IMG/VR virus record: IMGVR_UViG_2910596823_000004
Length of the DNA stretch: 27,765 nt
From: a virus
Taxonomy: Duplodnaviria; Heunggongvirae; Uroviricota; Caudoviricetes
Direction: 5' to 3' (one strand)
Positions 4,370-27,765 of this stretch are shown one piece after another; within the stretch, counting starts at the first letter, position 1, and each line of letters starts with the position of its first letter. A program made the position numbers and the translations under genes. The notes beneath the pieces were generated by a model. The model saw only the letters and a program-made list of their open reading frames with translations, had not been told where the DNA came from and searched no databases.

Positions 4370-4399
4370 ATTTTGTAGGTAAGCACTTACCTACAAAAT
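4370..4399. promoter_or_regulatory. 18-bp palindromic box, copy A (4376-4393, TAGGTAAGCACTTACCTA), within a perfect 14-bp inverted repeat
   Basis: ATTTTGTAGGTAAG-CA-CTTACCTACAAAAT between cor and the holin-like gene; 3 mismatches to consensus TAAGTAAGTACTTACTTA. Confidence 0.7.
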
Positions 4400-4404
4400 G
4401 AGTT

Positions 4405-4638
4405 TTAAATTTTTGGGCATGAGCTTAGTGAGGTGAAAGCACCAGAGCCGACCCAACGCCAGTTAAAGACACTACCTGCACGGTATAATGTGTAATGCCC
4501 TTCTTTCTTAATCGCATAGATTGGCACACCAGTGTCAACGCCGCCTACCATTGCTCGCCCATAGCAAACCGGCTCTGGTAGTTTCTGGCACGCAGTCAAA
4601 GTTAAAGCCATACCTAAAATTAATATCATCTTTTTCAT
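4405..4638 (-). CDS. cor: Cor superinfection-exclusion lipoprotein
   Basis: 77 aa, lipobox LTAC, with the PVC.G.A.VGG....V.IY..K......YRAG..FNWRWV....F....C pattern of phi80/N15/T1 Cor. Confidence 0.88.
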   Translation of the reverse strand: MKKMILILGMALTLTACQKLPEPVCYGRAMVGGVDTGVPIYAIKKEGHYTLYRAGSVFNWRWVGSGAFTSLSSCPKI

Positions 4639-4649
4639 TCTATTCTCCG

Positions 4650-5258
4650 TTATCCGTAGAGGTTTCTGTTCAAAACTGGAACTCGGTTATTGATAGCTAA
4701 TGTAGCCCCACCGTTAATTTCATTAACGAGAATCGAACTCACGGTGTTCCCATAACATGTGTAACCGTATACTAGGGTCTTCGCACCACCCGGCATCGGT
4801 ATGGCGAATGCGTTAGCATATGTAGGCACAATAGCTACTGGATAATCAAAGTTGTGTTTATCTCCGCTGTTCCAGCTCTTATTATCAAGAAACGTAAATG
4901 ACAATGGAATATTTGCCGTGTTATAGATCTCCACTCCCGATGAATTAAAGAAACTCATCCCCCACTTCTCTTTTTTTGAAATGCCAGTTGCGAACACATA
5001 CACCGTTACACTGGAGTCGCTGCCTACCCCGCCGAAGCTGTAAATAACCTGGTTATTGCGAACTAATCGGCTTGCCAGTAGCGATACTGCCTTTGAATAA
5101 GCAACGAAAACAATAGGCGACCGATCTGGAGACAGGCCAGTATTGAACTCACTTCCGCCTCGCAACGACACCACATGCTTACTTTGGAACACCATCGGGG
5201 TAAGACTTGGAGACATCCAGACCTTCCCATCAGAACGAACAATTTTGCTTCCGTACAT
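4650..5258 (-). CDS. Tail-tip/receptor-binding-associated protein (larger gene of the phi80/T1-like pair preceding cor)
   Basis: 202 aa, beta-rich, begins MYGSKI; TAATG-coupled to the upstream 84-aa gene and directly upstream of cor. Confidence 0.55.
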   Translation of the reverse strand: MYGSKIVRSDGKVWMSPSLTPMVFQSKHVVSLRGGSEFNTGLSPDRSPIVFVAYSKAVSLLASRLVRNNQVIYSFGGVGSDSSVTVYVFATGISKKEKWGMSFFNSSGVEIYNTANIPLSFTFLDNKSWNSGDKHNFDYPVAIVPTYANAFAIPMPGGAKTLVYGYTCYGNTVSSILVNEINGGATLAINNRVPVLNRNLYG

Positions 5259-5512
5259 TATTTCTGAAACACCAATATATAAATTGTACCGCGAGCATCA
5301 GACCAGTTAATCGAGTTGCCCGATACCGAAACACTTCCAATATATCCATTGATTGTTTCCATTATGTAGTAATCAATTGACATACCTGGCTCAATTGCAT
5401 AACTTCTGCTGCCACTACCTGTCGGTAGAAAATAATCCAGATAATAAATTGGCGCTAATGCGTCAACCATTTCCTGACGGCTAGGCGACCAGATTTTTGC
5501 TCCATAACTCAT
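5258..5512 (-). CDS. Small tail-tip-associated protein (MSYGAKIW type)
   Basis: 84 aa; the N-terminal YG.KIW motif resembles the small genes that follow J in T1/phi80/HK97-like phages. Confidence 0.55.
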   Translation of the reverse strand: MSYGAKIWSPSRQEMVDALAPIYYLDYFLPTGSGSRSYAIEPGMSIDYYIMETINGYIGSVSVSGNSINWSDARGTIYILVFQK

Positions 5513-5527
5513 TATTTTCCCTCCGTG

Positions 5528-5551
5528 AAAAGAGGCACTAACGTACCTCTT
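5528..5551 (-). terminator. Intrinsic terminator after the adhesin gene
   Basis: AAGAGGTAC-GTTA-GTGCCTCTT (one G-U pair) followed by TTC. Confidence 0.6.
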
Positions 5552-5555
5552 AAAA

Positions 5556-6092
5556 TCAGACTCTGGAGACGGTAAACGTCGCTCCTACCTGATTGAAAAA
5601 CCAGTTTTGTGCAGTTAATGCGTAATAAGTCCGCACCCCATTCAGGTACATATAATTGACAAACGACAGCACAGTACCATTAAGAGATAGATTAAAGTTT
5701 TGTGCAGGCCCATTAACCAATCCCAAATAGAGATTTTGATAACCGCTTGGTTGATAAAAATGTCGGATTTCACAACCAAACAAGCTACCGCTTAGAGAAC
5801 CAGTAGGGCGCACGGTTAGAACGTTACTGAGTACATTCTGGATACTGCCTGTAGCGGTTGCAAAACCGGTGTAGTTAGTGGACACAATGACCCACTGCAT
5901 GTTTGTTACCTGCACGCGGGCATCATAAGTACTGCGTCCAGTTGTGATGGTAAAGTCGGCAGTAGATTTACCAACCAAGCCACTCATCCAGAACGGTGTG
6001 CCGACCTTAACAGCCGAGCCAGCGGCGGACATCCACCGCTGACCAGTTGTTGCGACGGCTGACGACCCGACCCATCCGGAGCCAATAGCCAT
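5556..6092 (-). CDS. Tail-fibre adhesin with a T-even gp38-type N-terminal attachment domain
   Basis: MAIGSGWVGSSAVATTGQRWMSAA...PFWMS..VGKS matches the Trp-rich gp38 N-terminus. TGATG-coupled to the fibre gene. The C-terminus lacks polyglycine motifs. Confidence 0.75.
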   Translation of the reverse strand: MAIGSGWVGSSAVATTGQRWMSAAGSAVKVGTPFWMSGLVGKSTADFTITTGRSTYDARVQVTNMQWVIVSTNYTGFATATGSIQNVLSNVLTVRPTGSLSGSLFGCEIRHFYQPSGYQNLYLGLVNGPAQNFNLSLNGTVLSFVNYMYLNGVRTYYALTAQNWFFNQVGATFTVSRV

Positions 6093-9000
6093 CAATTACC
6101 TCCCTTTAAAACAGACATTTCTCCACGGAGTTCGCGCACTTCTTCACGTAACTCCTTCACAGCCTCGACCAACATGCCGATCACACCGTTATAGTTCAGA
6201 CGTAAACGCGCTTGGCCGGACTGATCATTGTGGTCGACAGTTACCAGCTCAGGCTGGACCTTCTGAACGTCCTGCGCGATAAGCCCGCCAGACTGTTCGT
6301 AACGGTCATAGACCTGAATTTCATATAGAACGCCTTCAATCCGCTCTAACTTGTCGAGCGCCCGTTCAATCTTGCGAATATTACGTTTGCTACGACGGTC
6401 AGAGCGGATATAAACGTCGTTAAAACTACCATTGCCACCGCAATACCACACGCCATCGTTCTGCAGAAAAGCCTGTGCATCCGTTCCGTTAGCAGTACGC
6501 GATTTGTTAATCATGTAGAACCCGAACTGCGAGTTCCCCAACCCACCGACCATAAAGTAACGATCGGCGTGCTCCTGACGAACAATTGCTGATGCGGAGG
6601 AGGTATTTACAGCGGAGCTGTTTGAAAGCGCAGCGTTAGTCCTCATGTCGATCCACGATGTGCTCGACGTCGGGATTCGGATATTTCCGCTCGTGACATC
6701 CACCCCTCCCCCAACGCTCAAGCCATTCCCCATTGAAACTGCACCGCTTGCGTTTGCAATAGTAATCGGTCGTAAAGCATTCCAACTTCCAAGCGGATCT
6801 CCAGATGCGGTCAAAAGGAAATAGGTGTTCCCCCCATCATTTCTGATAAAGAAACCATAGTTGCCATATGCCGCGCGGTAGGCGTTGGCCGATCTGGAAA
6901 TGATATCCCCTGCTGCAGTCAGACCACCTGAAAGCGTGCCACCGGACAAAGGCAAAGCCCCCACATCTGCGGCGCTCGGCTTGTTGAGTGTGGTGTAGAG
7001 CTGTGCCCACGCCGACCAATTTGCATCACTAGCATCACGGCGAGAACGAACGTAAACTGGCGCATGAGTACCGCTCGTTCCGCTCCAGCCAATCAATAGT
7101 TCACCTTCACCTGAAGACGCCGCACCTTTAAGATGAATGACGTTGCCATAAGTCGTTGGGTAATTGTTGCTGTAGGCTTCATACATTTGTATGCCGGGCA
7201 TTGCCCCCTGGGAGTTAGCTTCCAGCGCTGCGACTCTCCCGCGTGACACAAGTGTGGGAATGGAGATATTTGCTGACCCGTCAAAAGACACGTTATTAAT
7301 CGTTCTTGGGGTCTGTAGCTTAGTCGCTGTTGCTGCATTGCCTGTTGTACTCTGATTACCCGCAGTATTTACGCCCGGCAAATTGATATCAGTTGACCCA
7401 TCAAAAGAAACTCCGCCAATTTTTCGCGCTGTTTGCAGTTTTGTCGCCGTACCAGCATTGCCCGTAGTGCTCTGATTGCCTGCTGTGTTTACGCCAGGTA
7501 AGTTGATATCGGCTGACCCATCAAAAGAAACCCCACCAATTTTTCGGGCCGCCTGCAGCTTCGTCGCTGTGGCTGCATTACCGGAAGTATTCTGATTACC
7601 CGATGTATTTACGCCTGGTAGATTGATATCTGCGGAGCCATCGAAAGACACACCTCCGATACTACGAGCGATCTGGAGCTTGCTCGCCGTTGCAGCGTTA
7701 CCGGAAGTACTCTGGTTGCCCTGAGCATTCACCCCCGGAAGCACGATATCTTTGCTGCCATCGAACAATACGCCACCGATGCTGCGAGCGGTCTGCAGTA
7801 CAGTCGCTGAACTTGCGTTACCCATGAGCGATCCGGTAATAGAGCCATCTGCATCGGAAAGCACACGATGATAAACAACTCCCACAACGGCGTTTTCCGG
7901 TAGCGTATCCAGAACCTCAAAAACTTCCAGGGTCTCTACCGCTGCGCCAGAGAACTGAAGGTTAACAATCAGCTTCTGAGCACCCGCACCGGCATTCAGA
8001 TAGATATCGTAGTTGTCCTCATCGGTGTTCACAGTGGCTACGTTCTGCACGGCAGAATCCATTGTGCGATAGGTAACTACATTCAGGCCACGCGGATCGC
8101 CACTAGCTGTTCGAAGCACTATGTCGGCCATTGCCGCCTGATAAGGGCTGTTGACTTCATATCCCGCACCGCCAATGATCTCGATATAAACGGTGCTGGT
8201 CGACTGCGGCATACGTGCGCGCGAAATCTTCACCCATTTAGGCGAATCGGTAGTTAGGTCCATCTCTGCGGAAGTCCCTTTCCACTTCACGCTCGCTACA
8301 CTTGATTGGGCATTCTGAGCATACTCATACGCCTTATCCTCAGACTCTTTCGCTTTTGTTTGGGATATTTTTGCTTCACCCGCGGAGGTTGACGCCTCGG
8401 TTGCCTTCTTCGATGCGAGCACAGCGGACTCAGCCGCCTCATTCGCTTTGACTTCTATCCCAGCCAGAGAATCTGCCGCTGTTGTTGCCGACGCAGCTGC
8501 ACTCGTCTCTGACTTCTTAGCTTCACCTGCGCTCAATGCAGCGGCTTCTTTGCTGGCTAACGCAGCATCAGCGTATTCGCCAGATGCCGAAGCACTATTA
8601 GCCGCAGCCTCGGCACTCAGACCTGCGGCAGATTCACTCTCAGCAGCAGCCTTCTGCGATGCGTCGGCGTTGGTTTCTGAAACTTTGGCCGCAGCAGCAC
8701 TGGCCACCGACTCCCCGGCGCTCGAAGCAGCATGAGTTTCTGACTCCTTAGCCGCATTTTTCGAGGCCAGCGCATCAGCTGCACTACCAGCGGCGGCCTG
8801 CTCTGAGGCAGAGGCATTGGTTTCAGAGGTTTTTGCAGCAGCAGCAGAGTCAGACGCAGCAGACGCTGAAGCAGAGGCTTCGGATGCACTGGTCGCAGCC
8901 TGAGCTTCAGATGCTTTAGCCGCATCTTTGGATGCCGCGGCACTCGTGGCTGATTCACCAGCTTCAGTCGCTTTGGCAGACGCTGTCGCGGCAGACGCAG

Positions 9001-9646
9001 CAGCATCGACCTTGAGGCTTTCAGCATTGGTTTCAGACGTTTTGGCAGCGGATGCACTTACACCGGCAGCGCTTTCTGATGCAGCTGCGGCGGTAGCACT
9101 CTGGCTTGCTTCGGTGGCTTTGGTCGTCGCTGTATTGGCGCTTTCCGCAGCGGCCGCAGCACTGGCAGCGGCTGCTTTGGCCTTTTCACCAGCGGCATCG
9201 ATAGCGTCGGTATTGTCTTTGTACCATTGCTGATTGGCATTGTGCTCATTGACGATCTGCGTCAGCGACTTCACGGTCACTTCCGTACCGTCTTCACGCT
9301 CAAGCGTGACCTCATCAACAGCTGTCAACCAGCTGCGCATCGTCTTCGAGTCGGCTGACATACGGGTCATTAGCGCGGTAAAACGTGCGCTGAACTGCGT
9401 TAAATCGCCCTCATAGGTTGTAATGATGCGGCACGGAACTTCCGTCTGGGTTTCGCCTGAATACGGCTCCACCAGCAGCAGGATGGTGTCATTGAGTACG
9501 CGCTTAATTTCGTGCAGTTTGTTATCAGGGCCAATGACAATCATGCCCGGCAGCACACCATTCACGGTAACGTTCCAGAACGTACCGGTGCCGGTGAGTG
9601 TGTCACTCCCCTGTGTAAATGTGATAGTACCTTCCCTGTACCACAT
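6092..9646 (-). CDS. Long side tail fibre with a C-terminal intramolecular chaperone (peptidase S74-like)
   Basis: 1184 aa: MWYREGTI attachment domain, Ala/Ser-rich repeats, 40-aa repeats, gp37-like segments (YGFFIRNDG), and a C-terminal RSDRRSKRNI...GLIAQDVQ...LNYNG chaperone signature. Confidence 0.92.
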   Translation of the reverse strand: MWYREGTITFTQGSDTLTGTGTFWNVTVNGVLPGMIVIGPDNKLHEIKRVLNDTILLLVEPYSGETQTEVPCRIITTYEGDLTQFSARFTALMTRMSADSKTMRSWLTAVDEVTLEREDGTEVTVKSLTQIVNEHNANQQWYKDNTDAIDAAGEKAKAAAASAAAAAESANTATTKATEASQSATAAAASESAAGVSASAAKTSETNAESLKVDAAASAATASAKATEAGESATSAAASKDAAKASEAQAATSASEASASASAASDSAAAAKTSETNASASEQAAAGSAADALASKNAAKESETHAASSAGESVASAAAAKVSETNADASQKAAAESESAAGLSAEAAANSASASGEYADAALASKEAAALSAGEAKKSETSAAASATTAADSLAGIEVKANEAAESAVLASKKATEASTSAGEAKISQTKAKESEDKAYEYAQNAQSSVASVKWKGTSAEMDLTTDSPKWVKISRARMPQSTSTVYIEIIGGAGYEVNSPYQAAMADIVLRTASGDPRGLNVVTYRTMDSAVQNVATVNTDEDNYDIYLNAGAGAQKLIVNLQFSGAAVETLEVFEVLDTLPENAVVGVVYHRVLSDADGSITGSLMGNASSATVLQTARSIGGVLFDGSKDIVLPGVNAQGNQSTSGNAATASKLQIARSIGGVSFDGSADINLPGVNTSGNQNTSGNAATATKLQAARKIGGVSFDGSADINLPGVNTAGNQSTTGNAGTATKLQTARKIGGVSFDGSTDINLPGVNTAGNQSTTGNAATATKLQTPRTINNVSFDGSANISIPTLVSRGRVAALEANSQGAMPGIQMYEAYSNNYPTTYGNVIHLKGAASSGEGELLIGWSGTSGTHAPVYVRSRRDASDANWSAWAQLYTTLNKPSAADVGALPLSGGTLSGGLTAAGDIISRSANAYRAAYGNYGFFIRNDGGNTYFLLTASGDPLGSWNALRPITIANASGAVSMGNGLSVGGGVDVTSGNIRIPTSSTSWIDMRTNAALSNSSAVNTSSASAIVRQEHADRYFMVGGLGNSQFGFYMINKSRTANGTDAQAFLQNDGVWYCGGNGSFNDVYIRSDRRSKRNIRKIERALDKLERIEGVLYEIQVYDRYEQSGGLIAQDVQKVQPELVTVDHNDQSGQARLRLNYNGVIGMLVEAVKELREEVRELRGEMSVLKGGN
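7256..7822 (-). repeat. Tandem 120-bp (40-aa) coding repeat, 4 full copies plus 1 partial
   Basis: GNA(A)TA.KLQ.AR.IGGVSFDGS.DINLPGVNT.GNQ.T. units start at 7822, 7702, 7582, 7462 and 7342. Confidence 0.92.
8320..9200 (-). repeat. Low-complexity Ala/Ser-rich (AAxSETNA-type) fibre shaft repeats
   Basis: Recurrent AK.SETNA / SA.AAA motifs in the translation; boundaries are approximate. Confidence 0.8.
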
Positions 9647-9658
9647 ATTCGCTCCTTG

Positions 9659-9682
9659 ATAAGACGGGCATCCTCGCCCGTC
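9659..9682 (-). terminator. Hairpin (weak terminator) upstream of the fibre gene, loop GAGGAT
   Basis: GACGGGC-GAGGAT-GCCCGTC followed by TTAT. Confidence 0.5.
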
Positions 9683-9684
9683 AT

Positions 9685-9702
9685 TAAGTAAGTACCTACT
9701 TA
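9685..9702. promoter_or_regulatory. 18-bp palindromic box, copy B (TAAGTAAGTACCTACTTA)
   Basis: 1 mismatch to consensus; lies in the J-fibre intergenic region. Confidence 0.75.
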
Positions 9703-9733
9703 TTTTTACCGATATGAAGAAATATTTCTACTG

Positions 9734-12700
9734 TCAAAGAAGCCCAATCCTCACCCGGAGAACGTTGTTGTCGTCATAGACATCGATACGCTGGCCGTTG
9801 ATGACCAGACGACCGTTACCGCCACTATTGCCGTTGATCTCCAGCACGCCATTTTTCCCAAAGCGCCATCCTGAACGGCCAGAGATAAAGTTGGTGGACT
9901 GTAGGTCGCCAACTTTGGCGTTGGTGATTGTTCCATCCTTGATAAAAGCGCCGTTCATGTAAGCAACGCTGTTTTCGACCACAAACGGTGTGGTGATTTT
10001 CCCGTTAACCGAGTTCACAAGACCAAAGCGGTCTGCTTGAACAAGGAACTGAGAAAGACCTGTGCTATCAATGCCCAGCGCGATACCGGCAACATATTTC
10101 TGGCCACCGCTCGTGGAGGTCTCCATTTTAAGCGTCCACGCTGTCGAAACCTTTTTGTTGGTATCGGCAATTGCCTGGGCCTGCTGCTGGATAGTGGCCG
10201 AGTTGCCATCTACTTCAGCCTTAATCGTATCAATACGACCACCTAGTGCTTTATCGGCTTCCGCGCGTGCGGTTGCTTCAGAAGTAATAGCGGCACTGAT
10301 ATCTTTTCCTGTCTGAGCCTGCAAATTGGTGATTTGCCCTGCCAGCGCAGAGTCGGCATCGGTTCTGGCTTTCGTTTCTTCCGCAACAGCCGCCTTAATG
10401 TCGGCACCTGTTTGGGCCTTTAGTGTTGTGATTTGTTGTGCCAACGATTCGTCGGCGGTCGCTCTTGCAATCTGCTCTTCGGCTAGCGCCGCGCTGATAT
10501 CTCCCTCAACCTTCGCTTGCAATGTTGTGATCTGCTTCGACAACGACTCATCCGCCGTTGCACGAGCCTCTTGTTCGGTCACAATTGCCGCAGCGATATC
10601 GTCGTTAATCTGAGCTTCAAGCTTGGTTATTTGGGTCGCAATAGCCTTATCAGCCTCAACACGAGCCGTCGTTTCTTCAGTGATAGAAGCGCGAATATCT
10701 TCACCAATTTCTGCGCGGATCTCTTCCACTTTCGAGGCCATTGCAGACATATCGTCGGCAAACGTCTTCTGAGTGGTTGCGATCTTCGCGTTATTGACCA
10801 TCTGCTTGTGCTGGTCTTCATCCTGACGCAGAGCGAGATCGATATTGGTTTTGGCCAATGCCTCAATATTGGTGGTTACTTCCGCGCTGGCTCGCTCGAC
10901 TTCGGCCACAGTTTTCTTCATCTCTTCAACAGCAGCAACGCTATCGTCAACAGAAGACTTCATCGCCTCAATCTGTTTGGCGTTCGCCATATCGCCTTCT
11001 ACTCGGGCCTCACGTTCTTCGGCAATCAATGCAGAAGCATTATCGAGTGCTGCATGAGCTGCTTCGACCGCGCCAGCTACGGCTTTGCCCTGCTCGGATA
11101 CAGTTTCCTGTAACTCAACTAAAGCCGCATTGGAATCTTCAACCTGTTGCAGAGCGTCATTGACCTTATCCAAAGTGCCGGACACTTCCGTTTTAAGCCC
11201 GTTTTGCGCTTCTTCTAGTCTCTGATCTGCCGCCGTCAACTTGTCATCGAGATCTTTGAGGCTTTCCTCCATCTGCTGATAGATAGAATCAACAGCCTCC
11301 TGAGAAACCTTAGAGTCGATTTCCTCAAGCAACTCCTGTCCCAACTCAGAAGATGTGATTTTCCCTGTCAGGAATGAGAGAACATCCTTTGTCATCGCCT
11401 CGGTACCCAAATTGGAGTTCGGCGGACTCAACATGCCTCTCTTATTTGCCGCGCGAACCCAATAGAACCACGTTTCGCTATCCCCCAAACCTGCATGGGT
11501 GAAAGTAGTACTGGCGGCCTCGGCAATCAGTTTTGCGGTGTCCAGGTCGTTGGTCTGTGACGCATACACGTTGATGTGGTCGAGATCGATTGAATCAGGG
11601 TTAACCCAATTCAGAATCACGTTGCGATAGTCACCCACGGCCGTCAACGCAGTCGGTGCGCCTGGCGGTGTCATCGTTCCCTGAACTTTATAGACTGTAC
11701 TGATGATCTCAGTCTTTTTGCCGCTGAATGACACAGCATAAAGCTGGATATCATATTGGCCGTTCTCGGCAATATTGATGATTTCGTACTGCTCTTCAGT
11801 GACACGCGCGGACTGCCAGTTAGAAACGTTGTTCTCGTCCGAGCGACGCCAACTGATCCAATACTCAGCAGACTTACCTTCCCAGGTCGCAATAAGCTTG
11901 ATGGAAAGGTTGCCTGGGCTGGAAATATACGTTCCTTCCGTCACCTGCAGGTTTGTCGGCTTCGAGTATGTTGGATCGAGAACGGTGTTGTTCTCCGGAA
12001 TCAGCGTCGCCCCATTGTCTATCGCTTCGTACTTCGAAGGGTTATTCTGGACGACCGTCACATCGAAAGACCCTTGCGCATCACCCTGTGCAACGTTGAT
12101 AACGCGTACTCGCATTGGCTCCAGGTCTGGTTCGGTGATAGTCCAGATGCCATTCATTACTGGCATTTCGCCGGATGCCAGAGACTTCGAGAACGTCACT
12201 TTAGTGATATTCTCCCCCGTCTCCAGAATGTCGCGTTCGACGATCTTGCCTTCCTGGTTCAAGATGCGAATGTAGCTGCCGCTTTTCTTCAACGATACTG
12301 GTGCGTCTAATGTGATGCTGTTCTTGTTAAAGGACATAATGCGACCGGAGTTGCGTTTGCCCGAACGGTACTTGTTCTGGATCAGCACGGTTTCACCTGG
12401 CATCAAGAACGAAGCATCAAGACCTGCAGTAAAGGTGATAACGTCAGACTCCATGCGAGCGGTATACAGCAACCACAAACCGACACGATGCGCCTGGCCA
12501 CGGCTGGTACAACCGAACGCAACCACTTCGGTTTTGCGCTCGCCATAACGACGCATCGCCTCCTGGTCTTCGACGTACTCGATGTTCTGTTTGTAGCCGT
12601 CTTCTTTGTTGTTGTAGGTGACAAGGGCAACGGAAGGACGATCTTTGCGAGCTGAACCTTTATAGCTGAACAGGCCATCTTTGACGTTTGCGTTGGTAAA

Positions 12701-13891: not shown

Positions 13892-13909
13892 GTTCAAAAA
13901 AATCCCTTA

Positions 13910-15976: not shown

Positions 15977-15989
15977 CGTTTCTTCCTTG

Positions 15990-16022
15990 AAATAAAGAGG
16001 CGCCAACATCCTGTCAGCGCCT
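15990..16022 (-). terminator. Intrinsic terminator between M and L, loop AGGAT
   Basis: AGGCGCTGAC-AGGAT-GTTGGCGCCT followed by CTTTATTT. Confidence 0.7.
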
Positions 16023-16033: not shown

Positions 16034-16051
16034 TAAATAAGTGCTTACTTA
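16034..16051. promoter_or_regulatory. 18-bp palindromic box, copy C (TAAATAAGTGCTTACTTA)
   Basis: 2 mismatches to consensus; lies in the M-L intergenic region. Confidence 0.72.
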
Positions 16052-16065: not shown

Positions 16066-16401
16066 TTATCCTTCATAAATTTGTCTGAAGGTCGCAGTGA
16101 GAACCTGATAGCCCTGGTAACGTTTGACTGTATGGCTGTCGCACACCACAACAATCTTTTTGCCACGAGGGTTCGTCCAGTAGAACGACTCAACGGCTGC
16201 GCGTGCCGTCAGAAAGTCATCGACAGCATTGATGACGTCGTAAGAGCGCGTAAATGTCAGGCTCCACTCTTCTTTGATGCGATTGAGACCTTTGGCCTGG
16301 CGCTGTTCGTAATCGTCACCGAAATTCAGAACCGTCACGTTAGGCTTCACGGTCTTTTCCGACTCGTAGTCGGGATACCAGTTAAAAGTCAGTCTTTCCA
16401 T
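16066..16401 (-). CDS. Distal tail protein (lambda M-like)
   Basis: 111 aa; FGDDYEQR..KGLN...W.L.F and FL......F.W..P pattern; directly after the TMP. Confidence 0.92.
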   Translation of the reverse strand: MERLTFNWYPDYESEKTVKPNVTVLNFGDDYEQRQAKGLNRIKEEWSLTFTRSYDVINAVDDFLTARAAVESFYWTNPRGKKIVVVCDSHTVKRYQGYQVLTATFRQIYEG

Positions 16402-16438
16402 CTCACATCCTTGTGAGACTGCCCCTTCCGGGGCAGCC
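16401..16438 (-). promoter_or_regulatory. Tandem hairpins between TMP and M: a GGAA-tetraloop stem and an RBS-containing TCTCAC-AAGGAT-GTGAGA stem
   Basis: CTGCCCC-GGAA-GGGGCAG (16419-16436). The 16401-16418 hairpin places the Shine-Dalgarno in a hexaloop that matches the CsrA consensus ACARGGAUGU. Confidence 0.6.
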
Positions 16439-16442
16439 GTGG

Positions 16443-21023: not shown

Positions 21024-21030
21024 TCCCTTG

Positions 21031-21390
21031 TCATCCTCTGCCAAAAATTTGCATCAGTTGCTCTTTGGCGTCAGGGTCTGCCTTATCCTTGCGCGGATCG
21101 TAGACTTTATCGGTTACGACTGGTCTTCCAATCCTGAGTTGCAAACCCTCCATGAACGCCTTCACGCCCTCGCCATCTGCCTGGGCAGCGCGAGCGACTT
21201 GCAGGTTGCGGACATCCTCTTCCGCGCGCAGGCGGTCGATGTTGCGACTGAGCATCCAGAACATCGTTAGAGGGACGCCCAGCAGCTCTAATGGCGACAC
21301 GGCGTAGTGAGCAACTACACGACTGAAATAGAATCCGAGATCTATCGATACGGTCTTTACCCCGGATTCATCGCGGGAAATTACTTTGCC
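21031..21390 (-). CDS. T frame of the tail assembly chaperone GT (about 222-aa fusion made by -1 frameshift)
   Basis: The -1 frame is open from 21390 (GKVISRDESG...HYAVSPLELL...) to 21031, with a TGA just upstream in that frame; classic position between G and the TMP. Confidence 0.85.
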   Translation of the reverse strand, partial: GKVISRDESGVKTVSIDLGFYFSRVVAHYAVSPLELLGVPLTMFWMLSRNIDRLRAEEDVRNLQVARAAQADGEGVKAFMEGLQLRIGRPVVTDKVYDPRKDKADPDAKEQLMQIFGRG

Positions 21391-21698
21391 CCTTCACCAG
21401 CCGCTTTTTCGTTCTCTTCATCAATCACTTCCATAGCGAAGGTGAAGATCTGCTGGAGCTGCGGAACAGTCAGTTTTTCCAGTACAGCGTCCGGCACGGA
21501 TGGGATGACCTTGCGAACCAGGTCGGCGTAAGCAGTAACCTGCTCAACAGGCGACATGTTCTGAAGGTCTTTGCCTTCCATCTGCTTGATGGAGACGAAC
21601 AGGCCAACAGTCATTTCAACGATGGGATATTCCTGACCGCCGAACTTGATGCTTTTCTTCGGAGGCAGAATGGAGTCGAGATCGAGTAATTTGGTCAT
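21381..21698 (-). CDS. Tail assembly chaperone G
   Basis: 105-aa acidic protein between the tail tube and TMP genes, ending GAA GGG GCA AAG TAA. Confidence 0.88.
   Translation of the reverse strand: MTKLLDLDSILPPKKSIKFGGQEYPIVEMTVGLFVSIKQMEGKDLQNMSPVEQVTAYADLVRKVIPSVPDAVLEKLTVPQLQQIFTFAMEVIDEENEKAAGEGAK
21384..21390 (-). other. Programmed -1 ribosomal frameshift site G GCA AAG
   Basis: Only three codons (GGG GCA AAG) lie between the upstream -1-frame TGA and the 0-frame TAA. Confidence 0.7.
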
Positions 21699-21714
21699 TG
21701 GTTAAAGTCCTTTT

Positions 21715-21740
21715 AAAAGAGAGGCTCTTCCTGAGCCTCT
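21715..21740 (-). terminator. Intrinsic terminator after the tail tube gene, loop AGGAA
   Basis: AGAGGCTC-AGGAA-GAGCCTCT followed by CTTTT. Confidence 0.75.
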
Positions 21741-21757
21741 GCTTAGTTACATCGCGA

Positions 21758-22504
21758 TTATTGGGCAGAATTAACCGTTACTGCTTTGGTCGCTTTCTTG
21801 CCGCCGCTATTGCTGGTGAAGGAGATATTTGCCGAACCTTCAGCTACTCCGCGAACCAGACCAGTCTGGTCAACGGTTGCCTTCTCCTGATTGTCGGATT
21901 CCCACACACCAGTTTTGTCGCCGGCATCTTCTGGGGTGATCTGGGCAGTCAGCTGCACGGTCTCACCAGCTTTAACTTCCGGAGATTCCGGAGAGATAGA
22001 GACGGTTTTAACCGGCTTTGGGCCACTCATTTTCCCCAGCACGCCGCTATCATCCGGGTAAGCGGTGAATTGAACGGAGAACACGCGAACATCATCAGAC
22101 TGGTAAGTCATGGTGAAGTTACCTGCGGTCGCCGCTTTCGGGATGGTCAGAACGTAGTCGGTGGTATCCTGCGGGGTCAGAACCAGCTCTTTGGCTACGT
22201 CGATCAGGTTGACGCCCTGTGCGGAGGTGATGGTTACAGCGTTATCTTCTTCGCTCAGGGTAGAACCCGGCATCAGATCGACCATATTCTTCAACACAGA
22301 CTCGGCCAGCGGCGCAGTGATAGTGATGTTACGACCCTGCACCAGCTCGGAGATGGTGGTCTGCCCCAGCTGGTCTACGGTGACTTTCAGAGTTTCGGTC
22401 GCAACCTCAACCTGAACACCGCCTTTGGTGTAACCCAGATCAACGCCACCAAACGACACTTTGCAGGCGCCAAGTTTGATGTTTTTTACATGGGTATTGG
22501 ACAT
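21758..22504 (-). CDS. Major tail tube protein with a C-terminal Ig-like (Big_2) domain
   Basis: LGYTKGGV tube motif; C-terminal VKTVSISP...GETVQLTA.ITP...W.SDN...ATVD..GLV.GVAEG.A.I Big_2 pattern. Confidence 0.92.
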   Translation of the reverse strand: MSNTHVKNIKLGACKVSFGGVDLGYTKGGVQVEVATETLKVTVDQLGQTTISELVQGRNITITAPLAESVLKNMVDLMPGSTLSEEDNAVTITSAQGVNLIDVAKELVLTPQDTTDYVLTIPKAATAGNFTMTYQSDDVRVFSVQFTAYPDDSGVLGKMSGPKPVKTVSISPESPEVKAGETVQLTAQITPEDAGDKTGVWESDNQEKATVDQTGLVRGVAEGSANISFTSNSGGKKATKAVTVNSAQ

Positions 22505-22555
22505 TGTTGGAAAACTCCTTTTTCCGTTAAATCAGCACCTTCATGGCGCCAATGG

Positions 22556-22573
22556 TAAGTATATACTTACTTA
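22556..22573. promoter_or_regulatory. 18-bp palindromic box, copy D (TAAGTATATACTTACTTA)
   Basis: 2 mismatches to consensus; upstream of the tail tube gene. Confidence 0.72.
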
Positions 22574-22578
22574 TTTTA

Positions 22579-22962
22579 TTAATTCAACAAATAGCCCGCA
22601 AATTCAATCGGGATACCCGCTTCAATTAATGAGCCTTCGTTTTTGGGATAAGTGATCGGCATAGACATTGGCCGAACCAACCGGAAGTAAACGCCCTCTG
22701 ACACGGTTTCTTCGACCGGGAACATATCCATGATCTTATTGGCTTTCGCCACCGCCTTTGTGATCGTCGCATTACGCACGATGACGGTAAAAGAGTCGTG
22801 ATAAAAGCCTTTCAACTCATGGTCAATAGCGATCCCCGTATTGGGATTAACCAACAGAACACCGGACTTCACATTGGCTGGCATGTAGTGACAGAAAATG
22901 TCAGCGCCGACTGTACCGATCTTCGCCTTCTGCATCAGGCTCGCAAATGCTTCAATAAACAC
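22579..22962 (-). CDS. Tail terminator / tail completion protein
   Basis: 127 aa, GTG start, canonical position immediately upstream of the tail tube gene. Confidence 0.7.
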   Translation of the reverse strand: MFIEAFASLMQKAKIGTVGADIFCHYMPANVKSGVLLVNPNTGIAIDHELKGFYHDSFTVIVRNATITKAVAKANKIMDMFPVEETVSEGVYFRLVRPMSMPITYPKNEGSLIEAGIPIEFAGYLLN

Positions 22963-22963
22963 A

Positions 22964-23437
22964 TCAACCTCTCGTAAAACCTGCTTTCCTTGCCGCTTCT
23001 GCTATCGTCTGAGTGAACTGTTTTTCACTGATCTGTACGGCTCTCTCAAGGAACAAAGGCCCAACTCGTGGCTTCACACCAGCGACTGGCGGGTTGGTGA
23101 CGCTCTTCATGCGAGAGAGATAGCCGAGACGATACTTGCCCAACTCCATGTACTCCGCATAATCGCCAACCTCAACGCCCGGATGCCCTTCGCGTGGTTT
23201 GGCTCCAGATACCGATAACTCAATACGAAGCCCGGTATAACCTTCTTTGACCACTCTCGCGAAGATCGCGCTTTCGAGTGAGCCAGTCTCCAGCGGGGCC
23301 ATTGCCCGCGCAAGACGCTCAACCAGACGCGCCAGCTTCTCCATGTCACGGATGAGATAACGCTTAAAGGCTTTCTGGCTGTTATTGAGCCTGTCGCCAG
23401 CACGCTTAAACTGATGCGCGTCGTACTTCAGACCCAT
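22964..23437 (-). CDS. HK97 gp10-like neck/tail completion protein
   Basis: AP.ETG.LESAI and YAEYMELG motifs, ending in PLFLERA. Confidence 0.8.
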   Translation of the reverse strand: MGLKYDAHQFKRAGDRLNNSQKAFKRYLIRDMEKLARLVERLARAMAPLETGSLESAIFARVVKEGYTGLRIELSVSGAKPREGHPGVEVGDYAEYMELGKYRLGYLSRMKSVTNPPVAGVKPRVGPLFLERAVQISEKQFTQTIAEAARKAGFTRG

Positions 23438-23772
23438 ATGTTTGCCCCTACTTCCAGATGCCCAGGGCGCCCACGCAGTCCCCAGCGACGATGCACGCTG
23501 GATACCTTCAGCTTTTGCCCCTCCAGAATGAGAACGTCATCAAGCTGTACTGCGGCCTCAAGTGGGATCACCAGAACAGCATCGAACAATTCCAGATCCG
23601 CTTTACCGCGACTGCCGGAGCTGTCCGCACGTACCGATGATTTCTCGTTACTTTGCTCAAACTTAACGACGCCGACGTTCGTCTTCCTGACGAACTGCAA
23701 TTGCGCTTCACCGTAGACGTTCTTCGAACCCAGACGGTAAATCGCTATCTCTGCTTGCCATGAAATGTTCAT
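23428..23772 (-). CDS. Head closure (stopper) protein
   Basis: Start reassigned to MNISW (AGGGAG RBS); NVYGE motif near the N-terminus and a beta-rich DDVLIL...KV.SV pattern; neck position. Confidence 0.7.
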   Translation of the reverse strand: MNISWQAEIAIYRLGSKNVYGEAQLQFVRKTNVGVVKFEQSNEKSSVRADSSGSRGKADLELFDAVLVIPLEAAVQLDDVLILEGQKLKVSSVHRRWGLRGRPGHLEVGANIWV

Positions 23773-23869
23773 GCACTCTCCCTGTGGTTGGCCGCCGCAC
23801 TCATTACCAGGCGAAGGCGCGATTGCTCGTCTTGAGCCTTTCGACCAGAAGTAAATAATGCGACTGGCG

Positions 23870-24703
23870 TTACGCACGGCGAACAATCATGCGGTTATTG
23901 ATGTAACTGACCAGCAGTCGCCAGGTACTGCGAGCCACATGCACATTTGCCGCTTTGCCGGTGCGGTACATATTAGTCGTTTCACCAATGGACTCAGACA
24001 GAATGCCGTCCTCGCGGGCTGCCGCTACGTCATTACCGTTAGCGATTTCGCAGGCTTCATTAACCACGGCCAGCATTAATGCCTGTTTGAAGTAGTCCGG
24101 GAACTCGTCGAATTTCTCCGGCGTTATCTGCTCCCAATCAATCAGATCGTGACGATATGCCCCGTCAGCGCCCCACGGAATGTCATAGACGTTCAGCATG
24201 TTTTGCGGGCGGTCGTAACGGTCGAAGTCGATACGCAGGACTTTGCGGATTGAGAACGGCAGCGTTTTGACGCGTCTGGTGGCCTCAATGAGACGTTTGC
24301 GCATCAGCCCTTCTCCATCAGCTAACAGGGTGTCGCCGTTCAGCATATCGATAGCTTGCATCTGGGCGTCTGCGACCGTTGCGAATGACTGGCCTGGAAT
24401 TGACAGCTCGAAGCTATTCAGCAGAACGTACATCTTGCGCTCTTCATGCGTCAGCCCGGATGCCACCGCTTTGACAATGACGTGTCGCAGATCGCGCTCT
24501 TTATCTGAAAGCAGGTTGTGTTCGGCCGACACGACAACCGGAATGGACATCTGCCCCTCAGTAATGTCGAGAGGTTCGTTATCAACGATGATCGCACCAG
24601 CGCCATCTCTGACGGTGTATGTGGCCGACGCAATATCCAGAACGTTAAATGCAAACGACAGGGAAACAGCTTCCCCGCTACGGTACGTGTCGATCTGCGC
24701 CAT
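23870..24703 (-). CDS. Head-tail adaptor/connector with an extra N-terminal domain
   Basis: 277 aa, TGATG-coupled. The C-terminal half has SFATVADA...LIEATRRV...P...K.A...A......ILSESIG adaptor-like motifs. Confidence 0.65.
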   Translation of the reverse strand: MAQIDTYRSGEAVSLSFAFNVLDIASATYTVRDGAGAIIVDNEPLDITEGQMSIPVVVSAEHNLLSDKERDLRHVIVKAVASGLTHEERKMYVLLNSFELSIPGQSFATVADAQMQAIDMLNGDTLLADGEGLMRKRLIEATRRVKTLPFSIRKVLRIDFDRYDRPQNMLNVYDIPWGADGAYRHDLIDWEQITPEKFDEFPDYFKQALMLAVVNEACEIANGNDVAAAREDGILSESIGETTNMYRTGKAANVHVARSTWRLLVSYINNRMIVRRA

Positions 24704-25137
24704 CACTCACCGCCCTGTGCTTTCAGGATGCCTTCGATCATTTCAACGATGCCTTTGGCTTTAACGCCAATCTGGTTGCCAATCTGACGCAGACCCGCAA
24801 TACCCTCACAGTCCGCAATCGACTCCAGCTCTTCACGAGTAAAGCGCTGTACCGGTTTGGCTTCGACTTCAGCCGTACCACGTTTCATTGGCACAATATC
24901 CGGGGCCGCCGTCTCGACAATGTCGTCCGCAGTCAAATCATTGCGGCTGCTGTACGCGGCAGAAGGAGATACATTTTTGCCTTCAACTGTAGTGGCACGC
25001 ATGGAGGCGCAAATTCGCTGCTGGTCGATGAATGGCAATTCGGCAACCGAGACTCCATCCACAAACTGAATGCCACAGAGGATGCCCGTATAACCCAAAA
25101 ACTGAGGCTCCAATAATTGAATTTTTGCTGGTTTCAT
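24703..25137 (-). CDS. Conserved hypothetical virion-associated protein
   Basis: About 144 aa (ATG of MKPAK); co-oriented and coupled within the head-neck cluster. Confidence 0.65.
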   Translation of the reverse strand: MKPAKIQLLEPQFLGYTGILCGIQFVDGVSVAELPFIDQQRICASMRATTVEGKNVSPSAAYSSRNDLTADDIVETAAPDIVPMKRGTAEVEAKPVQRFTREELESIADCEGIAGLRQIGNQIGVKAKGIVEMIEGILKAQGGE

Positions 25138-25152
25138 GGTTATTCTCACTTA

Positions 25153-25174
25153 ATGGGCGATCGATATCGCCCAT
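25153..25174. other. Perfect 9-bp inverted repeat without a U-tract
   Basis: ATGGGCGAT-CGAT-ATCGCCCAT; possible mRNA-stabilising or processing hairpin. Confidence 0.5.
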
Positions 25175-25181
25175 GTGTTAG

Positions 25182-25462
25182 TTACGCGGCAGGTGCTTCG
25201 GTCACTTTGACCGTTGCTGTCGCTTCGTAGGTTCCGTCTTCGCAAGTAATTTCGCAGATTCGTCGTCCGGTACAGTCGGCTCAGCCGGAGTAGTGGAAAC
25301 GGACGGGACGAATGGAACCGCCTGGAGGCAAGCAGCAAGACGTCTCTGCTGGCGCTCACCCAAAGGCTCGTCAGAGATGGAATGAGTGAATCCGGTGCCG
25401 CATACATGACCCGTGAAATCCGCAAACACCTCTTCAGTGATCTTCATCTTTTGTTCTGGCAT
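25182..25462 (-). pseudogene. Ig-like (Big_2) capsid decoration gene with an internal deletion and frameshift
   Basis: Frame 0 reads ...AVPFVPSVSTTPAEPTV (start of a Big_2 domain) and then loses similarity. A second frame encodes EITCEDGTYEATATVKVTEAPAA* (end of a Big_2 domain, stop at 25182). The domain core is missing. Confidence 0.65.
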
Positions 25463-25475
25463 TTCTCGCTCCTAC

Positions 25476-25503
25476 AAAAAGGGTGGGCGTATAGCCCACC
25501 CTT
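25476..25503 (-). terminator. Intrinsic terminator after the major capsid gene
   Basis: AAGGGTGGGC-TATAC-GCCCACCCTT followed by TTT. Confidence 0.85.
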
Positions 25504-25509
25504 AAACGG

Positions 25510-25527
25510 TAGATAATTACTTACCTA
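25510..25527. promoter_or_regulatory. 18-bp palindromic box, copy E (TAGATAATTACTTACCTA)
   Basis: 4 mismatches to consensus; lies between the capsid stop and the terminator. Confidence 0.55.
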
Positions 25528-25536
25528 CTATACTGA

Positions 25537-26418
25537 TCAAATTTTTACGTTGGTCAGTGCGGCGATAGCCTTGTCGTGCTTGTTCGCCAGAGAGCAGTAC
25601 CACTTAACGCGGGTACGTACTGCGTCTTTGTTCTGTACAGTACCGATGTTCTCAACAACGATACCGGCGTTTTCGCCACCGTACAGACCGGTCACGCCGT
25701 TCTCTTCGGACAGGTGCAGACAGTAGATGTCCGCAGCGGTGTTGTCTTCGCTCTTCGGAATGAAGTCGTTGATGATGAACGGAACACCGTTATGGCACAG
25801 CATCGGACGACCGAAGTTCTCCATCATGATTTCGGACGGGCCTACGTTGACGGTACGCAGCAGAGCGCGGTACGCACGCAGGTGTTCGGAACGCATCATG
25901 ATGCAGTCAGCGCCTAGGTCTTTCACCGCGTCCACCAGCTCGTCGAACATGGAGAACGTCATGGAAGCCTTAGCGATGTCGATCTTCTGATCGTTGTGCA
26001 TCAGCTTCGGAATACCGTCGAATGCTTTGGTGTTCTCGGTGGAGTTACCCAGAATCAGGTTGCGACGGAATGCACGCGCCAGACCTTTCACCTTCTGACG
26101 AACCTGGATTGCCAGCTGGCTGTTGGTGTCAGACATAGTGGTCGCCAGGAATTTGTCGACGTCTACGTCGCCTGCCAGGATACGCAGTTTCGCAACGTGT
26201 TCGGTGAAGGTTGCAGCGCCTTCGGTGATGGTGTCGTTCACATCAATAAAGGTTGCTTCGCTCAGGGTAGCTTCACGGTTGTAGAGGTATGCCTTAGAAT
26301 TAATCTTCATGAAAGGCAGAACAGCGAACAGGTCATCGCGATCGATGATGGTCTCGATCACACCCTGCTCAAGTTCGTTGTTAGACAGCTTTTCAGCTTC
26401 ATCACGCAGTAATGGCAT
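25537..26418 (-). CDS. Major capsid protein (HK97 fold)
   Basis: 293 aa following the scaffold; E-loop-like YLYNRE, GDVDVDKF, FDGI.K and C-terminal RTRVKWYCSLA...AIAALTNV. Confidence 0.9.
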   Translation of the reverse strand: MPLLRDEAEKLSNNELEQGVIETIIDRDDLFAVLPFMKINSKAYLYNREATLSEATFIDVNDTITEGAATFTEHVAKLRILAGDVDVDKFLATTMSDTNSQLAIQVRQKVKGLARAFRRNLILGNSTENTKAFDGIPKLMHNDQKIDIAKASMTFSMFDELVDAVKDLGADCIMMRSEHLRAYRALLRTVNVGPSEIMMENFGRPMLCHNGVPFIINDFIPKSEDNTAADIYCLHLSEENGVTGLYGGENAGIVVENIGTVQNKDAVRTRVKWYCSLANKHDKAIAALTNVKI

Positions 26419-26444
26419 CTTTCATTTCCCTATGATTTAAGATG

Positions 26445-27341
26445 TTACTTGAGTCCGATTTTCCCCAGACCGGAGGTCAACTTATCCATAGTCGACTTGC
26501 TCTTCGGCTGGTTTACTTTGTGGGTCGGTTTGCTATTGGAACCAGCACCCTGCTTGGCTTCGCTGCGCAACAGTGCGTCAGCTTCCGGATCTGCACGCAG
26601 AATACGCTCAATCGCGGATTCGAACGGTAACGGTTTGCCTTCACCGTCAACCAGAACTGCACGTTCTTTCTGACCGGCTGGCTTATCAAAGCCCACAACA
26701 CTACCGTCTTCACCCACTTCGAAATGAGATCCGTAGATAACGCGAGCCTTAGCCGGAGTCATCAGAACTTTGTCACGCAGGAAGGCAGAGCCGCTGAAGG
26801 AAGCGCCAACAGTCATTTCGACCAGTTGAGCCTTCAGTGCGGCGTTCTCGCTCTCCAGAGCGGAGTAGCGTTCGTCGCGCTGTGCCAGTTCAGCCTGGTG
26901 CGCTTCGATCATCTGCTTTTTCACAGCATCGAACTCACCACGGCGTTCCAGTTCAGCCTGCTCCGCCTCCCGACGTGCGGTTTCTGCGGCTTGTTCAGCT
27001 TCGAGAAGCTGGCGAGCACGCGCCGGGTCAATATCACCGTACTGAGCCAGCTGATCGGCCAATGTGCGCTCTTTCTCCTTGCGCTTCATGTTCTCTTTCA
27101 GCAGGTCTGCACCGGCTTTCTTGGACTTACGCAGTTCTGCCAGCAATTCTTCCTGAGTCATACCGGCATACTCGTCGTCGTCACCCTTCGGTTGCTCTTT
27201 TTGCTCGCCCTGTTTGCCTGGGTCTTGATTGCCCTGCTCATTGTCTCCAGCAGGAGCACCGCCACCAGCGCCTCCGCGCTCATGCGCTTCGGCTACATCC
27301 ATCAGGCCACGACGGGCCATAAGCATTTGCCACAGATTCAT
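26445..27341 (-). CDS. Capsid scaffolding protein
   Basis: 298 aa; Gly-rich acidic N-terminus, long coiled coil, and basic C-terminal tail; lies between portal and capsid. Confidence 0.85.
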   Translation of the reverse strand: MNLWQMLMARRGLMDVAEAHERGGAGGGAPAGDNEQGNQDPGKQGEQKEQPKGDDDEYAGMTQEELLAELRKSKKAGADLLKENMKRKEKERTLADQLAQYGDIDPARARQLLEAEQAAETARREAEQAELERRGEFDAVKKQMIEAHQAELAQRDERYSALESENAALKAQLVEMTVGASFSGSAFLRDKVLMTPAKARVIYGSHFEVGEDGSVVGFDKPAGQKERAVLVDGEGKPLPFESAIERILRADPEADALLRSEAKQGAGSNSKPTHKVNQPKSKSTMDKLTSGLGKIGLK

Positions 27342-27363
27342 AGAAATTCCTTTTCGTTACTTA

Positions 27364-27765
27364 TCACTCGGTCTCTTGAGTAGATGAGTCCCCATTCCCT
27401 CGGGGTTGATCTTGCCCGCTTTCTTGGGCTGCATCTCGATCATAAGTAAGTACTGACTTATTTTCAAGGGTGTTAAGATCATTTTTTGGAGGAAATTTCA
27501 AGAGATCTTTTTGAAATTCCTTTTGCATCACCTCGGAAATGTTCGGGAAGACCTTCTCGATGAGCATTTCCATCTGATGACGACGAACAGAATCAGGCGC
27601 CTGGAGCAGCGACAGTTTCTCAGCAACGGCAAACTCGTCAGTCAGACCGCGAATGTCGAAACTTTCCGGGTACGCGATCAGAGAGTGGTCTTCATCCAGT
27701 TCGACACCCATCCATTTCGCTGCCAGCTGCATCATCTGGCGCTCTGCCCTTTCGAGGCGCTCTGC
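27364..27765 (-). CDS. Portal protein, C-terminal part (continues past the right edge)
   Basis: The frame is open to position 27765 (AERLERAERQMMQLAAKWMG...YPESFDI); position upstream of the scaffold and an I.YP..F pattern typical of portal C-termini. Confidence 0.75.
   Translation of the reverse strand, partial: AERLERAERQMMQLAAKWMGVELDEDHSLIAYPESFDIRGLTDEFAVAEKLSLLQAPDSVRRHQMEMLIEKVFPNISEVMQKEFQKDLLKFPPKNDLNTLENKSVLTYDRDAAQESGQDQPRGNGDSSTQETE
27439..27467 (-). promoter_or_regulatory. Internal promoter in the portal gene whose spacer is occupied by 18-bp box copy F (27443-27460)
   Basis: TTGAAA-17 bp-TATGAT. The box TAAGTAAGTACTGACTTA (1 mismatch) covers 16 of the 17 spacer bp and the first two bases of the -10. 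Confidence 0.7.

Follow-up and report, generated by a model that had tools for sequence, protein, structure and literature searches.

A palindromic box dispersed through SSU5-type phage-plasmids as a candidate operator of a CYRAN_45-family regulator

The window and its palindromic boxes

The DNA analysed here, called the window throughout, is a stretch of 27,765 nucleotides from the virus record IMGVR_UViG_2910596823_000004. It carries six copies of an 18-bp palindromic box, which are considered below as candidate operators of a regulator encoded by the same element. The window represents the first 27,765 bases of contig C21 in a genome of 5.48 Mb, is 97% identical to Salmonella phage SSU5 across 94% of its length, and specifies a capsid protein identical to that of the Salmonella enterica plasmid NZ_CP033346. 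It belongs to a Salmonella phage-plasmid of the SSU5/pHCM2 type, the rest of which lies on C21 beyond the window and on contigs C52, C51 and C62, for a total of 118.6 kb. All genes of the window are on the minus strand; they comprise the end of the portal gene, followed by genes for scaffold, capsid, neck, tail and fibre, then cor and the lysis genes, two genes of unknown function, and finally parA.

The six palindromes reported by the initial annotation are present at the positions it gave (Table 1), and 100 dinucleotide-preserving shuffles of the sequence yielded no match to TAAGTAAGTACTTACTTA. Mismatches to TAAGTAAGTACTTACTTA also agree with the earlier counts, with one to three in boxes 1 and 3 to 6, and four in box 2. 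The latter has two mismatches to the degenerate consensus TARGTAAGTACTTACYTA, and its orthologous copy in Klebsiella pJN2-26 is perfect. Five of the boxes are intergenic, as had been described, and one persists within the 3' end of the portal open reading frame (ORF). Measured with the annotated starts of SSU5, the distance from box to next start is 38–101 bp.

Table 1. Positions of the boxes and associated features (window coordinates, except for the regulator gene)
Feature	Position	Strand	Context
Box 1	27443..27460	.	Inside 3' end of portal ORF, 101 bp upstream of scaffold start
Box 2	25510..25527	.	10 bp past major capsid stop
Box 3	22556..22573	.	5 bp past tail-completion/minor capsid stop; 51 bp before tail tube gene
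Box 4	16034..16051	.	Between tail genes M and L
Box 5	9685..9702	.	Between J and tail fibre gene
Box 6	4369..4400, core 4376-4393	.	Between cor and holin gene
TGTGATATAAA, extended -10-like	4349..4359	-	16 nt downstream of box 6; conserved in four-element alignment
Own regulator gene	C51:1898-2281		Outside window; homologue of CYRAN_45 (66% identity)

The immediate surroundings of the boxes differ from one copy to the next. No other sigma70-like match in the window is as good as TTGAAA-17-TATGAT (27467..27439, minus strand), and box 1 occupies its spacer. Only a few bases separate boxes 2, 4 and 5 from a G+C-rich hairpin downstream, which in two cases is terminator-like and has a T-run. After box 2 the terminator-like hairpin (GGGTGGGC..GCCCACCC TTTTT; 25501..25485, minus strand) is succeeded by the ribosome binding site (RBS) of the decoration gene, and the same order of capsid stop, box and terminator was found after the capsid gene of the Acinetobacter plasmid pAF-673. 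The hairpin directly after box 4 is terminator-like and has 11 pairs (16022..15998, minus strand), and that after box 5 (about 9682..9663, minus strand) again precedes an RBS.

Box 6 is extended to a perfect 32-bp palindrome, and if the nearby TGTGATATAAA is the lysis promoter then the box would be situated at about -51..-34. The block TGTGATATAAAWCYGCCATCCCGATTTGA, which runs from window 4349-4359 down to the holin start, is conserved in the present element, SSU5, Cyrano and pJN2-26, and may be either an extended -10 promoter or an element of the 5'-untranslated region of the lysis cassette. The sequence upstream of box 6 cannot be aligned among the same four elements.

Other parts of the window depart from SSU5. 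Positions 1-94 are the end of an IS1 copy (100% identity to IS1 of P1 and other phages), which accounts for contig C21 stopping at this point; the first 350 bp of the window have no SSU5 counterpart. At about 25241-25277, some 640 bp of the SSU5 immunoglobulin (Ig)-domain decoration gene (5722-6401) are missing from the present element. The decoration gene specifies 86 aa here; its SSU5 counterpart has 307 aa and that of pJN2-26 has 142 aa, and the number of Ig repeats varies. A segment of the tail fibre gene (6547-7769) falls in a gap between BLAST blocks, without nucleotide alignment to SSU5, and is likely to reflect the exchange of a host-range cassette.

Distribution of the box in the element and its relatives

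When the whole genome was scanned with TAAGTAAGTACTTACTTA at three or fewer mismatches, 16 of 17 matches fell on the phage-plasmid contigs C21 and C52. The degenerate consensus TARGTAAGTACTTACYTA gave 27 sites in the 118.6-kb element, compared to 21 matches at the four-mismatch level in the other 5.36 Mb, and at three or fewer mismatches the figures were 22 and 1, respectively. The window therefore carries six of about 27 copies. A chance origin is ruled out by the shuffles and by this enrichment. A site for a host transcription factor is unlikely, given the single chromosomal site at three or fewer mismatches and the fact that even so remote a host as Acinetobacter shares the box.

At 22–26 bp, the full palindrome A-W-R-A-TARGTAAGTACTTACYTA-T-Y-W-T is longer than the 18-bp box at its core. 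The flanks of the box prolong the dyad, with A at -1 and T at +18, often as atgaTA...TAtcat, and TA recurs every 4 bp. The kernel GTAA-N4-TTAC is invariant across the clades examined, while the AAGT/ACTT centre is not conserved in Acinetobacter or Aeromonas.

Using the SSU5 annotation as a gene map, 26 boxes were placed between positions 2032 and 99799 of that genome. Intergenic DNA makes up 11.6% of SSU5 and holds 23 of the 26 (binomial P = 5e-19). Boxes precede the late genes for portal, scaffold, decoration, tube, L, fibre and holin, but also those for SSB, NrdA, a thymidylate synthase (ThyX or ThyA), RNase H and a DNA methylase, cobS, the genes of a membrane protein pair, and several genes of unknown function. 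The initial annotation had proposed that the palindrome heads every structural and lysis module, and that a wider scan would find it restricted to late or lytic genes. The boxes do precede those modules, but they equally precede genes of replication and nucleotide metabolism, so that restriction to late genes does not hold, and both early and late lytic genes are involved. Among the minus-strand maintenance genes of SSU5 and Cyrano no box was found, the exceptions being three divergent intergenic regions and the regulator gene described below.

The box is conserved in homologous intergenic regions, as the initial annotation had anticipated. Cyrano (about 80% identity) and pJN2-26 (about 78%, in the shared half) have boxes at the same gene junctions as SSU5 and the present element. 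Over the six window sites in these four elements, 91 of 108 box columns are invariant compared to 337 of 540 flank columns, a conserved footprint that supports the earlier proposal of an operator for an uncharacterised, element-encoded regulator, at least as a predicted protein site. In the most diverged gap, between cor and holin, 13 of 18 columns are invariant in the box and 30 of 90 in its flanks; at box 1, where the surrounding sequence is coding, the figures are 18 of 18 and 74 of 90.

More distant plasmids carry related boxes. In the Acinetobacter plasmid pAF-673, whose capsid is 57% identical, TTAGTAAGYRCTTACTAA occurs at 34 sites and a reversed control at 4. The Aeromonas plasmid pNY4625 (58% G+C), with a capsid 52% identical, has TCAGTAARNNYTTACTGA at about 25 sites. 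Box positions common to all clades are the TerL–portal and cobT–cobS junctions, the divergent region between the helicase and ParB_N genes, and the position directly after the capsid gene. This type of element is much older than its enteric clade. SSU5-like elements were also seen in Photorhabdus, with boxes of the form TAAGTAAT-NN-ATTACTTA, and in Serratia, with degenerate boxes only; both carry a homologue of the regulator.

Two lytic siphoviruses of about 110 kb, Stenotrophomonas BUCTxx99 and Pseudomonas phiK7B1, share the structural genes of these elements; the modules for replication and ParB_N are shared too, at least by BUCTxx99, which is fully sequenced. Box matches in them number 1 and 0, compared to 1 and 3 for the controls, and their late intergenic gaps contain only unrelated terminator hairpins. 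A de novo search for some other dispersed palindrome found none in either phage, by a crude method that gave a weak signal on the first 40 kb of SSU5 but ranked the known palindromes first on complete pJN2-26 and pAF-673.

Candidate readers of the box

Among 46 distinct sites, the two half-sites form 291 Watson-Crick pairs, compared to 293.7 +/- 5.4 when right halves are shuffled among sites. The half-sites vary independently, and this points to a protein dimer that would read the box as duplex DNA through its two half-sites, and not to a hairpin.

The most likely such protein is the CYRAN_45-family regulator. CYRAN_45 of Cyrano is a 128-aa XRE-type protein whose gene adjoins those of the integrase and cobT. 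In a study of strain LF82 it was designated the putative repressor, and found to be transcribed 10-fold above the prophage background in the lysogen (PMC9928086). With the exception of CYRAN_45 itself, none of the Cyrano genes listed there as lysogen-expressed lies directly downstream of a box. The homologue of the present element is encoded on C51 (Table 1), and others are present in pJN2-26 (56% identity), pAF-673 (32%) and, at the corresponding position, the Aeromonas plasmid (29%). The family yielded 63 protein clusters, and most of those whose longest contig is recorded as long are on contigs of about 100–116 kb. In PLSDB, 954 plasmid records have the capsid gene and 865 the regulator, with nearly identical genus distributions. 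An apparent homologue in Thauera, considered as an independent test in an unrelated element, proved to be a generic XRE protein on a conjugative plasmid. Beside the integrase–regulator module of the present element, within the segment that SSU5 lacks, are three large ORFs (518, 373 and 1055 aa; C51, L024, 5588-11506), the sizes of which suggest a putative type I restriction-modification system.

Box and regulator occur together in the present genome, Cyrano, pJN2-26, pAF-673 and the Aeromonas plasmid, and both are absent from BUCTxx99 and phiK7B1. The regulator family profile found nothing in these two lytic phages, nor in SSU5, a free phage that is without the tRNA-to-cobT segment carrying regulator and integrase, yet retains all its boxes. 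Five genes are present in both distant temperate clades and absent from BUCTxx99, namely those for ParA, SSU5_043, SSU5_070, the integrase and the regulator. A DNA-binding domain that can be recognised and would fit a dispersed operator is present only in the regulator.

The regulator gene itself is associated with a box. In the present element, Cyrano and pJN2-26 its promoter is TTTACA-16-TAATAT, and the last base of the -10 is also the first of the box core (C/G)GTAAG(C/T)ACTTACC, which covers the start site. In pAF-673 a box occupies the spacer of TTGGGT-17-TATAAT ahead of the regulator homologue, and in Aeromonas one lies about 45–60 bp upstream of it. The initial annotation had left the choice between a late activator and a repressor; the co-occurrence of the box with a temperate lifestyle and the XRE gene, together with its overlap with the regulator promoter, favours a repressor.

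The pAF-673 homologue of the regulator scores 36 bits on Pfam HTH_3 (cut-off 23), and the Cyrano protein matches HTH_19 below cut-off only. The model, with a predicted local distance difference test score (pLDDT) of 79, has a five-helix XRE domain and additional C-terminal helices, and its closest structures are C.AhdI, C.BclI, 434 Cro and lambda cI, all of them weak matches (Foldseek E values of 0.007 and poorer). The sequence of helix 3, KNANNLSLIKSGK, hardly changes among 27 enteric homologues of 47–97% overall identity, and differs where the box differs, being NQNMVSFIVRGK in Acinetobacter and QASMLSMIKNGS in Aeromonas.

Of the competing explanations, the one that survives best is that the box is a lytic-cycle promoter element, recognised by a candidate phage activator at promoters without a -35 and with TAnnnT at the box edge as -10, in the manner of phage P1 Lpa. 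We consider this reading, which widens the late-activator idea of the initial annotation to all lytic genes, unlikely, although it has some attractions. Only 2–4 of about 20 boxes have a -35-like hexamer at 16–18 bp, while TAnnnT is present at the sense edge of 10–15 of the 18–23 sites per genome, and five sites in the G+C-rich Aeromonas plasmid end in TATAAT, TATAAG, TAAAAT or TAGAAT on the gene strand. In a P1-like manner, the box could be read as an inverted repeat directly before a -10-like hexamer without a -35, and the enteric box centre with its edge, AAGTACTT-ACY-TAnnnT, resembles the P1 repeat in a geometry similar to AAGTNACTT-N4-TANNNT. The latter word, derived in the present study from NC_005856, gave 12 matches compared to 1 for the reversed control, included the annotated late promoter LPpac, and serves as a concise pattern with which to search for Lpa-type promoters. 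That the box is so well conserved across hosts would be in keeping with a core transcription factor, and a lytic regulator that turns the repressor off could act through a site over the +1 of the repressor gene.

Against this, the analogy to Lpa that was drawn initially fails for want of the protein: P1 Lpa gave only E > 1 by tblastn, and its family PF25716 had no match on the element contigs (only E = 1.2 elsewhere in the genome) or in SSU5, Cyrano, pJN2-26, pAF-673 and the Aeromonas plasmid. The TAnnnT hexamer, noted initially on the coding strand, is indeed found at four of the six window copies, but occurs equally often antisense (sense/antisense 13/14, 11/7, 15/14 and 10/12 sites in four enteric genomes), and with a -35 at only 2–4 sites an oriented -10 or -35 at the boxes seems unlikely. 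Seven of the 26 SSU5 boxes are only 0–18 bp from the next annotated start, and the RBS would then fall outside a transcript begun behind the box. At boxes 2 and 4 a terminator directly follows the supposed start. Where promoters can be recognised the position of the box varies, from within the spacer (portal) to over the +1 (regulator gene) to about -51..-34 (holin), which speaks against an Lpa-type activator, for which the geometry has to be fixed; for a repressor or roadblock it need not be. Unlike P1 late promoters, the boxes are not confined to late genes, and the AAGT/ACTT centre on which the resemblance depends is not conserved in Acinetobacter or Aeromonas. Lytic relatives with shared structural and replication modules manage without any such element. 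A phage sigma factor as reader can also be rejected, as nothing similar is present in the enteric elements. A protein of pAF-673 (L018:43891-44556), between a MoxR/cobS-like gene and dnaE, is annotated as sigma-70 family and scores only 17.9 bits on Sigma70_r2.

A second, unrelated palindrome, AAACAACTTGTTT, was observed in the window at 1407-1419, upstream of parA (706-1371, minus strand). In SSU5 this type, AAACAANTTGTTT, lies between a GATAAT -10 and the ribosome binding site of about 20 genes, including parA, dnaB, cobT, terS, nrdB, ant, a methylase and many small genes, so the element has clearer promoter cassettes of another kind. It was recovered de novo only in the enteric clade, and is probably the operator of a different regulator.

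Less likely still is that the box serves another DNA-binding protein of the element with a function in the plasmid state, such as a dispersed centromere or silencing site of the KorB/ParB or N15 SopB type, or a nucleoid-organising site. RK2 KorB and N15 SopB use dispersed palindromes. In keeping with this, the box is found only in plasmid-forming clades, ParA, SSU5_043 and SSU5_070 have the same phyletic pattern, and in enteric, Acinetobacter and Aeromonas elements a box is present in the divergent region before two ParB_N-domain genes. However, both ParB_N proteins, which have no helix-turn-helix (HTH) according to Pfam, are likewise conserved in the lytic phages without the box and are unlikely binders for that reason; the parA promoter has AAACAANTTGTTT instead of a box; and neither SSU5_043 nor SSU5_070 has a recognisable DNA-binding domain. 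The FljA-like protein (PF03614, SSU5_121 family) was dismissed as it is confined to enteric elements, with no match in pAF-673. Its gene, outside the window at L010:9125-9640 (= C21:36890-37405), is conserved and specifies a 'repressor of phase-1 flagellin' (PF03614, E = 9e-97); this phage-plasmid protein could act on host flagellin expression. The single HTH match on C21 is an IS21 transposase and was likewise discarded. An IS21-type istA gene (L011:13143-14165; C21 about 60.9–61.9 kb) adjoins the thymidylate synthase gene and represents an insertion not seen in SSU5.

Least probable of all is an RNA hairpin in polycistronic transcripts, acting as a terminator, processing site or stabiliser, which was rejected: the boxes do lie in transcribed gaps just past stop codons and the holin copy folds at -14.4 kcal/mol, but it is the sole strong fold of the six (the others lie between -4.3 and -9.1 kcal/mol, and for two of them the z-score is near 0), half-site covariation is absent, the stems are A+U-rich with no U-run on the sense strand, an Rfam search gave no match, and the strand asymmetry of G:U versus A:C is lacking (7 G/T and 8 A/C at positions 3/16).

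A proposed lysogeny switch and its comparison with known systems

We lean, with modest confidence, towards the view that the boxes are operators and roadblock sites of the CYRAN_45-family lysogeny repressor, comparable to the operators of P1 C1 or the stoperators of L5. The sites, their enrichment and conservation, the independence of their half-sites, their co-occurrence with the regulator gene and the overlap with its promoter are results of the analysis, from which we infer the identity of the binder, repression by its binding, and a block to elongation. In the plasmid (lysogenic) state, a dimer of the phage-plasmid-encoded protein, most likely the 128-aa XRE regulator, would occupy about 27 sites. 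A few of these are in or on a sigma70 promoter, such as the portal-internal TTGAAA-17-TATGAT and the regulator's own promoter, and a box over the -10 edge and +1 of the latter would provide autoregulation. Most boxes have no visible complete promoter, and at these the bound repressor may present a stoperator-like roadblock to transcription through the long, co-directional lytic operons. Loss of the repressor would then free all units at once.

Several observations weigh against this proposal. Immunity repressors usually diversify fast, whereas the box is almost unchanged across enteric hosts and still recognisable in Acinetobacter and Aeromonas; this is unusual for an immunity operator, and a core transcription factor would fit such conservation better. 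It is not obvious why a roadblock would be needed at boxes 2 and 4, just before a terminator. The holin box lies upstream of the conserved extended -10-like block, at about -42, where activators classically bind. The Serratia relative has no clear box at its regulator promoter. The co-variation of helix 3 with the box is suggestive, and rests on three clades only. Lastly, the comparison with the lytic relatives is confounded by distance and by host G+C content.

The proposal matters because phage-plasmids of the SSU5/pHCM2/pMT1 type rank with the most frequent large plasmids found in Klebsiella, E. coli, Enterobacter, Salmonella and Yersinia pestis. Members of the SSU5 type are inducible and can carry resistance genes (PMC9600943). 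Full-text literature searches found no paper describing the box operator. One operator word and one named candidate repressor make up a model of the lysogeny switch that can be tested directly and would explain the lytic behaviour of SSU5. In practical terms, GTAA-N4-TTAC boxes and the XRE gene form a sequence marker that separated temperate from virulent members in a small sample of five temperate elements, one repressor-less phage and two lytic relatives.

The closest structural relatives of the candidate, the Cro/CI-type XRE repressors 434 Cro and lambda cI and the restriction-modification controller (C) protein C.AhdI, have the same fold, a dyad-symmetric operator and a site on their own promoter, but they act at one or a few operator clusters, compared to about 27 sites over 100 kb here. 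Phage P1 is closer in lifestyle, being a phage-plasmid in which one repressor, C1, has operators scattered genome-wide, including at its own gene (NC_005856 annotation). The P1 operators, however, are asymmetric 17-mers at promoters of early functions, late genes being reached indirectly via Lpa, whereas here the same site is also found inside late operons. No C1 homologue was detected in the present genome or its five relatives (tblastn E about 8).

The L5 gp71-type stoperators, repressor sites of the Cluster A mycobacteriophages (PMC9283540), offer the nearest parallel in arrangement, with more than 20 sites genome-wide, some of them in promoters and most in short intergenic gaps of co-directional lytic operons. 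They differ in being asymmetric 13-mers that are bound by a two-domain monomer and work in one orientation, whereas the present box is a palindrome with roughly symmetric flanks and no orientation that follows transcription. Here the candidate is a small XRE protein, presumed to be a dimer, the hosts are Gram-negative, the prophage is a plasmid, and the block to elongation is only proposed. That the boxes are true stoperators, at which a small dimeric XRE repressor on a palindrome would halt an elongating E. coli-type RNA polymerase at about 20 junctions of a 100-kb Gram-negative phage-plasmid, would amount to an independent invention and seems rather doubtful. If it were so, a silencing strategy hitherto known from actinobacteriophages would be shared by pHCM2, pMT1 and the Acinetobacter and Aeromonas phage-plasmids. 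A further likeness concerns lytic derivatives that lack the repressor but keep its sites. D29, described in PMC5712189 as a deletion derivative of a temperate parent, retains them, as SSU5 does here, and on the stoperator reading SSU5 would be a natural repressor-deletion (virulent) derivative, just as D29 is of L5.

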